Positions 4,285 through 4,333 of a stretch of DNA of 11,413 nt are shown here, piece after piece. The stretch lies in NCBI GenBank assembly GCA_964480455.1, contig CAYZQI010000153.1, positions 1-11,413 of the forward strand, written 5' to 3'. The notes under the pieces are model-generated. The model did not search any database and had not been told where the DNA came from. It saw only the letters and a list, made by a program, of their open reading frames with translations. The stretch's first letter is position 1; each line of letters starts with the position of its first letter. This DNA comes from an uncultured Cytophagaceae bacterium. Its GTDB lineage: Bacteria > Bacteroidota > Bacteroidia > Cytophagales > Microscillaceae. Both the position numbers and the translations under genes were made by a program.

Positions 4285-4333
4285 AAGCCCTCGTACAAGC
4301 CTCTTGGCTTGCACGGCAAGTAAAAGGTAGTCA
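4285..4333 (+). repeat. Copy A of a roughly 49-bp intergenic hairpin repeat (REP-like). Its core is the GC-rich palindrome cgtacaagcc-tctt-ggcttgcacg.
   Basis: 41 of 49 positions are identical to 8762-8810 in the same orientation. The core inverted repeat is 4292-4301 / 4306-4315 with a 4-nt loop and one A:C mismatch. A second small palindrome, tagtcaaacgacta, lies at 4328-4341. Confidence 0.6.

Follow-up and report, generated by a model that had tools for sequence, protein, structure and literature searches.

A palindromic intergenic repeat in Microscillaceae with likeness to REP and MITE sequences

What kind of element is represented by two closely similar sequences of 49 nt that occupy separate intergenic gaps, within 4.5 kb of each other, in the window analysed here (the whole stretch of 11,413 nt)? 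An earlier note had reported them as a direct match of 41 of 49 positions built around a hairpin. The match was borne out, ungapped, with the second interval at 8763-8811 and not at 8762-8810. In a scan of the whole window at all lags, 4285-4333 (copy A) and 8763-8811 (copy B) formed the top direct 49-nt pair, and 25 dinucleotide-preserving shuffles of the window topped out at 30 to 33 matching positions of 49, compared to 41 for A and B. The repeat is real and non-random, far above chance.

Copies A and B and their surroundings

Gene calls on the window, made with Pfam and PADLOC, were as follows.

40-567, minus strand: glyoxalase-like gene
694-1404, plus strand: HAD hydrolase gene
1612-4113, plus strand: major-vault-protein homologue of 833 aa with MVP shoulder, Vault_3 and SPFH domains
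4407-5471, plus strand: AAA_15/AbiL-like ATPase gene
5474-6118, plus strand: DUF3226 gene
to ~7027, minus strand: lipoprotein gene
7039-7659, minus strand: ABC ATPase gene
7808-8689, plus strand: secreted-protein gene
8947-9852, minus strand: DUF4835/PorD gene
9970-11160, minus strand: sucC

Both copies are intergenic. Copy A occupies part of a gap of 293 nt that runs from the stop of the vault-protein gene (4113) to the ATG of the ATPase gene (4407), with 74 nt between its end and that ATG, and copy B lies between the stop of the secreted-protein gene (8689) and the stop of the convergent DUF4835/PorD gene (8947). The ATPase and DUF3226 genes form a plus-strand pair (4407-6118) that corresponds to the PADLOC candidate defence system PDC-M38 A/B; the pair is low in G+C (0.34-0.37), and no homologue of the ATPase above 38% identity was found among 5.8 billion clustered proteins. 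The window contains no tRNA or tmRNA gene, which rules out tRNA-derived att sites as the origin of the repeats, and no transposase, RAYT, Y1, tyrosine recombinase or integrase gene was found within it. Homologues of the bacterial major vault protein number in the thousands in Cytophagales and other phyla, and the downstream neighbour of the vault-protein gene differed in every relative examined. The minus-strand ORF of 308 aa listed for the 6201-7659 region shares 89 nt with the ABC ATPase ORF. Its start is probably the lipoprotein signal MKKLALLLL... near 7027, in which case the ABC ATPase gene would be followed by that of a lipoprotein, for which there was no family match.

The repeat and the features close to it are listed below; scores are those of the covariance model R1.

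4285-4333, strand unassigned: core of copy A, consisting of the CCCTC tag, a 10-position hairpin and then CAAGTAAAAGGTAGTCA (78 bits on the minus strand)
8763-8811, strand unassigned: core of copy B, consisting of the CCCTC tag, the hairpin and then GCGGGCAAAAGGCATTCA (80 bits on the minus strand)
8764-8855, plus strand: copy B over its full length, made up of the core and the right part TTTATTTCATATTTCTTTTGAATCGAGGTTTAAGTGA, as delimited by homology to positions 958-867 of locus L003 (see below)
4214-4260, strand unassigned: degenerate partial copy without the hairpin, CCTCA ... CAAATAAAAGCTAGTCAG (18 bits, E ~0.1, hairpin positions deleted)
4264-4286, plus strand: left member of a 23-nt direct repeat bracketing copy A
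4383-4405, plus strand: right member of this repeat, ending 1 nt short of the ATPase ATG
4153-4209, plus strand: the vault-protein gene's own canonical intrinsic terminator as read from the sequence, CCTGTAAG...CTTACAGG and a T-run
4340-4347, plus strand: candidate -7 promoter box TAAATTTG, an exact match to TAnnTTTG

The core is laid out as a CCTC tag, a G+C-rich palindrome of 9-10 bp, GTGCAAGCC-TCTT-GGCTTGCAC, which with its 4-nt loop measures 22 nt, and an AAAAGG box ~10 nt further on. A and B have in common the exact 19-mer CAAGCCTCTTGGCTTGCAC, directly preceded by CCCTCGT. The hairpin arms are at 4292-4301 and 4306-4315 in copy A (loop TCTT, 4302-4305) and at 8770-8779 and 8784-8793 in copy B (loop TCTT, 8780-8783). 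On the plus strand, copy A has the mismatch A4295·C4312, and in copy B the counterpart of A4295, G8773, pairs with C8790. The A-to-G difference thus does restore a pair at 8773, as the earlier note had stated, but it did not hold up as a compensatory change, because it is one-sided and because copy B has a plus-strand mismatch of its own at the stem base, C8770·A8793, that had been left out of the count.

The long versions of the element, copy B and the third copy described below, reach ~92 nt. In copy B, TA|AACCCTCG...CGAGGTT|TA at 8762-8850 gives an inverted match of 7 of 8 positions with one indel, and the same place in the third copy gives 4 of 7; no right-end inverted-repeat partner was found for copy A. 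For neither A nor B were convincing terminal inverted repeats or a target-site duplication found.

Copy A has further repeats beside it. The degenerate partial copy at 4214-4260 lies directly to its left, with 15 of 19 positions identical between 4241-4259 and 4316-4334, and the two members of the bracketing direct repeat are identical at 19 of 23 positions. Shuffles of the region seldom gave matches as good as these.

The Bacteroidetes -7 promoter consensus is TAnnTTTG. The box TAAATTTG at 4340-4347 fits it exactly and is a candidate promoter. It begins 6 nt past copy A and lies 60 nt ahead of the ATG, so that copy A would lie upstream of the ATPase transcript. An 11-mer at this candidate promoter, ACTAAATTTGA, recurs ahead of the kinase ATG in L003. 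Copy A had been proposed, among other things, as a transcription attenuator or insulator for the island. For the vault-protein gene, it fails as a canonical attenuator or terminator, having no plus-strand U-tract, and it is not needed as a terminator since that gene has its own at 4153-4209.

A third copy, relatives and La3 elements

A third intact copy was found in another Microscillaceae genome, MAG SM2_1_3 (contig JAAUUB010000023, here L003), with its core at 917-956. By blastn it is 80% identical to copy B over 92 nt (E 2e-17), from which copy B is seen to extend to ~8855; 40 nt aligned with copy A. The third copy has a vapBC pair (PIN domain/vapC) on one side and a Kinase-PolyVal gene on the other, both oriented as it is, and L003 has no counterpart to any protein of the window. 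It is a true third member of the family at a non-homologous site, which upholds the earlier view of a dispersed family with a conserved hairpin core. The three 40-nt cores differ pairwise at 4-5 positions (~88-90% alike) and are roughly equidistant. Since the L003 copy is as close to A and to B as these two are to each other, A and B do not represent a recent duplication, a target duplication or an attL/attR pair. Intact copies known of this exact family number three, in two genomes. L003 also contains a 35-nt direct repeat (1792-1758 and 1003-969; 32 of 35 positions, 91%) that brackets vapBC, and its upstream member is followed by an apparent right half of the element without the left hairpin arm.

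Presence of the element in relatives was followed at the loci of PorD homologues (91%, 74% and 68% identity) and of vault-protein homologues (a cluster member with at least 90% protein identity, and 85%, 84%, 79% and 77%). Model R1 detected nothing comparable in the loci taken from seven related genomes (~113 kb), and a blastn comparison with L046 detected no element there. In L046, whose vault gene has 88% nucleotide identity, homology stops at the stop codon (window position 4109), and in L037, with a PorD of 91% protein identity, it stops at the PorD stop (window position 8948). Consequently, the whole of 4110-8947 has no counterpart in those relatives; copy A is set 172 nt in from its left end, and copy B 136 nt in from its right end. 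The previous placement of copy A exactly at the left edge of a low-G+C cassette was therefore not retained, as homology to the relative ends at the vault-protein stop, 172 nt further left. Among the relatives fetched there was no synteny beyond the vault-protein or PorD gene itself, and in no relative examined were these two genes near each other. The occurrence of two copies within 4.5 kb and of none in the relatives' loci searched argues for a local tie to accessory genes over random dispersal. The idea that the A-B segment is a discrete mobile island was rejected, because the segment lacks a recombinase and carries ordinary exported and ABC-transporter genes, and because the divergence between A and B equals that to the L003 copy.

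In the GTDB species genomes, the exact 19-mer was present at 19 loci, of which 15 belong to JBBRUH01 (La3, a Cytophagales MAG) and a single one to SM2_1_3; the remaining three are isolated matches in unrelated phyla, about the chance expectation for 596 Gb. The metagenome Ga0163144 contributed 11 further exact matches. Apart from stray singles, the exact metagenome matches lying in repeats were all in the La3-type MITE of Ga0163144. An alignment of the La3 and metagenome copies placed the identical 22-nt palindrome at the centre of two kinds of La3 element. The kind of ~110 nt has terminal inverted repeats, TAGAC-ATTATTACGAT / ATCGTAATAGCCTCTA, and TA flanks, and the kind of ~290 nt has the inverted repeats ATATTTCGGTAA... 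A second, related hairpin, CGTTCAAGCG-AAGA-CGCTTGAACG, adjoins the La3 palindrome with its loop in inverted orientation. At four loci (L006 4814-4852, L031 848-888, L018 and L032), locus-specific inverted flanks lengthen the palindrome to stems of ~19-20 bp. All 31 copies examined were intergenic, mostly between co-oriented or convergent genes. Outside the 22-nt palindrome, A, B and the L003 copy have nothing in common with the La3 MITEs. One palindrome would be reused in three settings: on its own as an element, within the inverted-repeat-bounded MITEs, and within long locus-specific palindromes.

Wider searches added no members. The pattern CCCTC-N6-GCCTCTTGGC-N13-AAAAGG, with stem covariation allowed, had no match in JGI metagenomes, two hairpin patterns had none in viral contigs, and BLAST of copy B against plasmids and phages found nothing. 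Two viral-contig matches to the right-part pattern had no hairpin and were set aside as chance. As side observations on La3, the two nested MITE types (~110 and ~290 nt, loci L001-L035) are abundant in one Cytophagales population (JBBRUH01, Ga0163144), and the carrier contig L012 has a coverage of ~137x compared to ~12x for the rest. The extended palindromes look as if the hairpin had been inserted into larger inverted repeats or had induced them.

Hairpin structure and strand asymmetry

For A, B and the L003 copy, a structure model with 14 pairs (the 10-bp stem plus an outer helix of 4 bp; 42 cells in three members) was paired in 41 of 42 cells on the minus strand and in 34 of 42 on the plus strand. 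Six pairs vary among the three copies, and on the minus strand each of their variants is either a Watson-Crick or a G·U pair; on the plus strand, the changes within the family are G-to-A transitions, which leave wobble pairs on the minus strand alone. No double changes were seen among the three. Predicted folding energies in kcal/mol, minus strand compared to plus strand, were as follows.

Copy A: RNA -18.1 vs -14.3; DNA -9.9 vs -8.3
Copy B: RNA -24.0 vs -22.3; DNA -14.4 vs -13.3
L003 copy: RNA -18.9 vs -14.8; DNA -10.7 vs -9.6

A and B fold better than shuffles on both strands, the minus strand being the better. If a folded strand matters, these models are suggestive of the minus strand with the loop AAGA, an asymmetry based on ~7 substitutions with roughly p = 0.06, one-sided.

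Over the 55 matches of model R1, which comprise 28 distinct hairpins, the 10-bp stem was 98% paired and four pairs showed double compensatory changes (e.g., G:C replaced by U:A at pair four, and C:G by G:C at the closing pair), in an alignment that was fitted to the model and hence is biased toward the structure. The second La3 hairpin, which stood outside selection by the search pattern, plainly shows compensatory differences. The unit that is conserved is the hairpin, as a structure of single-stranded nucleic acid, and its best-folding strand is the minus strand. The earlier proposal that the structure is what is conserved is thereby supported through double compensatory changes that keep the stem paired between subfamilies, none of which occur within A, B and L003. 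For copy A and the L003 copy, every neighbouring gene from which transcription could run through the element is on the plus strand, which does not fit an RNA role for the minus strand.

Readings of the repeat and comparison with known systems

In our view, with a probability of about one-half, A and B belong to a family of short, non-coding, dispersed intergenic repeats of Microscillaceae/Cytophagales that is a REP/MITE-like relic of miniature non-autonomous mobile DNA; this likening rests on three intact copies of the family, and high copy number is what defines REPs and MITEs. The family would have spread by transposition or recombination-mediated copying, and effects on neighbouring genes in the window would be side effects at most. 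Among such effects, the element could serve as a barrier or insulator between an upstream gene and a downstream accessory gene, and copy B, read on the minus strand, could act as a terminator-like hairpin with a U-rich tail 136 nt past the DUF4835/PorD stop.

REPs are palindromic units of 20-40 bp with a stem of 5-13 bp (8-9 bp in the CGTC type), a loop of 4-5 nt and an unpaired terminal tetranucleotide, GTAG, or CGTC with the variants TGTC and CCTC (Di Nocera et al. 2013, PMC3733652). In the CGTC type, stem positions one and two are complementary A/T and the 3-nt tail is close to CCA; REPs and REPINs number from tens to thousands per genome and are mostly inverted dimers, GTAG REPs flank a RAYT gene, CGTC REPs are reported to have no dedicated transposase, and REPs often lie after genes, where they can stabilise mRNA (PMC3733652). 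The element studied here resembles CGTC/TGTC/CCTC-tagged REPs in a CCTC 5' of the stem as a possible tag, in its stem of 9-10 bp and in its 4-nt loop (PMC3733652). The stem is perfect over 9 bp in copy B and reaches 10 bp with minus-strand wobble. A, B and L003 all have CCTC, within CCCTC, immediately before the stem, but its bases can in part pair within the outer 4-bp helix, and three copies are too few for a family tag to be called. Further likeness to CCTC-tagged REPs (PMC3733652) lies in the intergenic position, after genes and between tandem or convergent genes, with no dedicated transposase in view, and, in another genome, in related hairpins that occur as inverted pairs inside longer palindromic sequences or sequences bounded by inverted repeats, as in REPs (PMC3733652). 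Unlike REPs, the element has an AAAAGG box and a conserved right part of ~45 nt, and the window contains no head-to-head dimer: its two copies in 11.4 kb are both direct singletons. The REP/BIME likeness put forward earlier is the closest known analogy. REPs are the nearest known kind, but we do not file the family among them, as the stem starts with the successive pairs C-G, G-C and T-A instead of with A/T pairs and the tails are GGC, AGC and ATC instead of CCA.

MITEs with internal hairpins (Correia/NEMIS, ERIC and RUP-type) are similar in being ~85-290 nt long, non-coding, intergenic and lineage-restricted, in their patchy presence among close relatives and in their degenerate relics. As regards dispersal, three intact copies occupy three unrelated intergenic sites in two genomes, with relics alongside, and are absent from the orthologous flanks of relatives. 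The MITEs of the La3 Cytophagales genome (JBBRUH01) share the identical 22-nt palindrome, there at the centre of the TA-flanked TAGAC-ATTATTACGAT elements. Unlike MITEs, the A, B and L003 copies show no conserved terminal inverted repeats or target duplication. The family looks previously undescribed and of a fairly ordinary kind of feature. If our main reading is true, it would give Cytophagales/Microscillaceae, where such elements are hardly catalogued, an undescribed family of palindromic intergenic repeats. Its practical uses would be modest, as a possible marker of genome plasticity, and it may cause assembly breaks.

The position of copy A, 6 nt before the candidate box TAAATTTG and 74 nt before the ATG of the AbiL/PDC-M38-like ATPase gene, would also suit a promoter-proximal module of horizontally acquired genes, in which a double-stranded operator or an upstream insulating hairpin forms part of a shared upstream region and not of a mobile element. 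The L003 copy ends ~45 nt (full element) to 105 nt (core) upstream of the Kinase-PolyVal gene with the same ACTAAATTTGA ahead, a degenerate half copy precedes vapBC in L003, and copy A, the L003 copy and this half copy are all oriented as the gene downstream. We nevertheless consider such a module unlikely. Copy B has no downstream gene but a convergent one 136 nt away, there is no regulator gene nearby, and a perfect G+C-rich palindrome of 22-24 bp is atypical of an operator. Moreover, the palindrome is dispensable ahead of vapBC, where the half copy has no left arm, it also occurs inside MITEs scattered between unrelated genes, and a strand asymmetry of the wobble type is unexpected for an operator acting as duplex DNA.

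The restriction of variation to G·U pairs favours a fold of RNA or single-stranded DNA from the minus strand. Copy B is the sole strong hairpin in the convergent gap 8690-8946; on the minus strand it forms a helix of 14 bp (-24 kcal/mol) followed directly by UUUAGUAUUUGUUUUU. These features would be consistent with an element acting in RNA, either as a minus-strand terminator or 3'-end stabiliser (copy B for DUF4835/PorD) or as a bidirectional barrier between convergent or tandem genes, the more so as REPs often follow genes and can stabilise mRNA (PMC3733652). The likeness to intrinsic (Rho-independent) terminators comprises the G+C-rich intergenic hairpin and the U-rich minus-strand tail of copy B; unlike such terminators, no copy has a U-tract on the plus strand, and two of the three have none on the minus strand. 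An RNA role of this sort is improbable: neither strand of copy A or of the L003 copy carries a U-rich tail, no minus-strand gene is transcribed toward these two copies, a scan with promoter and terminator consensus sequences called neither copy, and the 3' flank of PorD has no such hairpin in relatives whose PorD is 91% and 74% identical. Furthermore, the vault-protein gene has its own canonical terminator; this one and that at 6144-6178 are evident canonical terminators and are unrelated to the element in sequence.

Integron attC sites and the ends recognised by HUH transposases work by strand-specific folding. The element resembles attC/CALIN arrays as a structured site (~60-140 nt in those arrays) between accessory cassettes in one orientation, with one strand folding better, and resembles attC neighbourhoods in that toxin-antitoxin and defence genes adjoin it. 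It might accordingly be thought a recombination or attachment site, beside which a site-specific or hairpin-directed recombinase inserts defence and toxin-antitoxin cassettes so that direct copies stand on both sides. A and B lie just inside the ends of 4110-8947 (172 nt and 136 nt), the segment that has no counterpart in relatives; vapBC of L003 is bracketed by the 35-nt direct repeat (91%) with element material following on both sides; and the neighbours (the PDC-M38-like pair, vapBC and Kinase-PolyVal) are typical cargo. This explanation is decidedly improbable all the same. A and B, at only 84% identity, are as far from each other as from the copy of the other genome and so do not form a fresh attL/attR pair or target duplication, the window has no integrase, transposase or recombinase, and the genes between A and B are ordinary-looking and in both orientations (ABC ATPase, lipoprotein, secreted protein). 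Inspection of A, B and L003 detected no inverted pair of the attC core sites RYYYAAC/GTTRRRY; the GTTGAAC and GTTGAAT that flank A on the left and on the right, respectively, are in direct orientation. Unlike attC, in which the opposite holds, the element is conserved at its centre and variable at its ends, the genes are in mixed orientations, and no IntI gene was seen.

A narrower version, that the hairpin is the folded, strand-specific site of a cassette-capture system of Microscillaceae unrelated to attC/IntI, with the bracketing direct and half copies as scars, is very unlikely, given that A and B are old and diverged, that no recombinase is present and that the genes between them do not evidently make up one cassette. 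If true, the hairpin would mark the insertion junctions of the defence pair, vapBC and the polyvalent-type kinase. The repeat adjoins a defence cassette without close homologue as well as toxin-antitoxin genes, and a real link to cassette insertion would outrank the element itself in interest.

That the element carries a small RNA gene or a small ORF is most unlikely of all: the minus strand of copy B does resemble an A/U-rich body with a strong hairpin and a U tail, but the suggested small structured RNA found no counterpart in Rfam (cmscan of the whole window at E <= 10, no match over 4285-4333 or 8763-8855), no promoter-like site is conserved upstream on the minus strand, and L003 has no U tail. 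B and L003 do contain in-frame plus-strand ORFs of 22 and 26 codons starting from the stem (VQASWLA... / MQASWLA...), but in copy A this frame contains a stop codon and lacks a start codon, variation is greatest in the stretch that separates the conserved blocks (6 of 15 identical), and conservation follows nucleotide blocks, not codons; the small ORF was rejected for this reason. A duplicated gene start after copy B (MLESVSDY... compared to MLTSVDIH... of the ATPase) was likewise dismissed, as the nucleotide identity is at background level.

Our preferred reading remains that of the REP/MITE-like repeat relic. Two palindromes of other sequence were noted alongside it. In L003, a 13-bp palindrome unrelated to the element, CTCTGACAAAGTT-TGG-AACTTTGTCAGAG, follows directly after the Kinase-PolyVal gene (~135-95, minus-strand reading) and may represent another repeat family or a terminator. 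In the window, a near-perfect palindrome at 6144-6178 with arms of 16-17 bp, AAAAATGCAAGCAAATC A GATTTGCCTGCATTTTT, has A/T runs on either side; located between the convergent genes for DUF3226 and the lipoprotein, it is a bidirectional terminator of textbook form.
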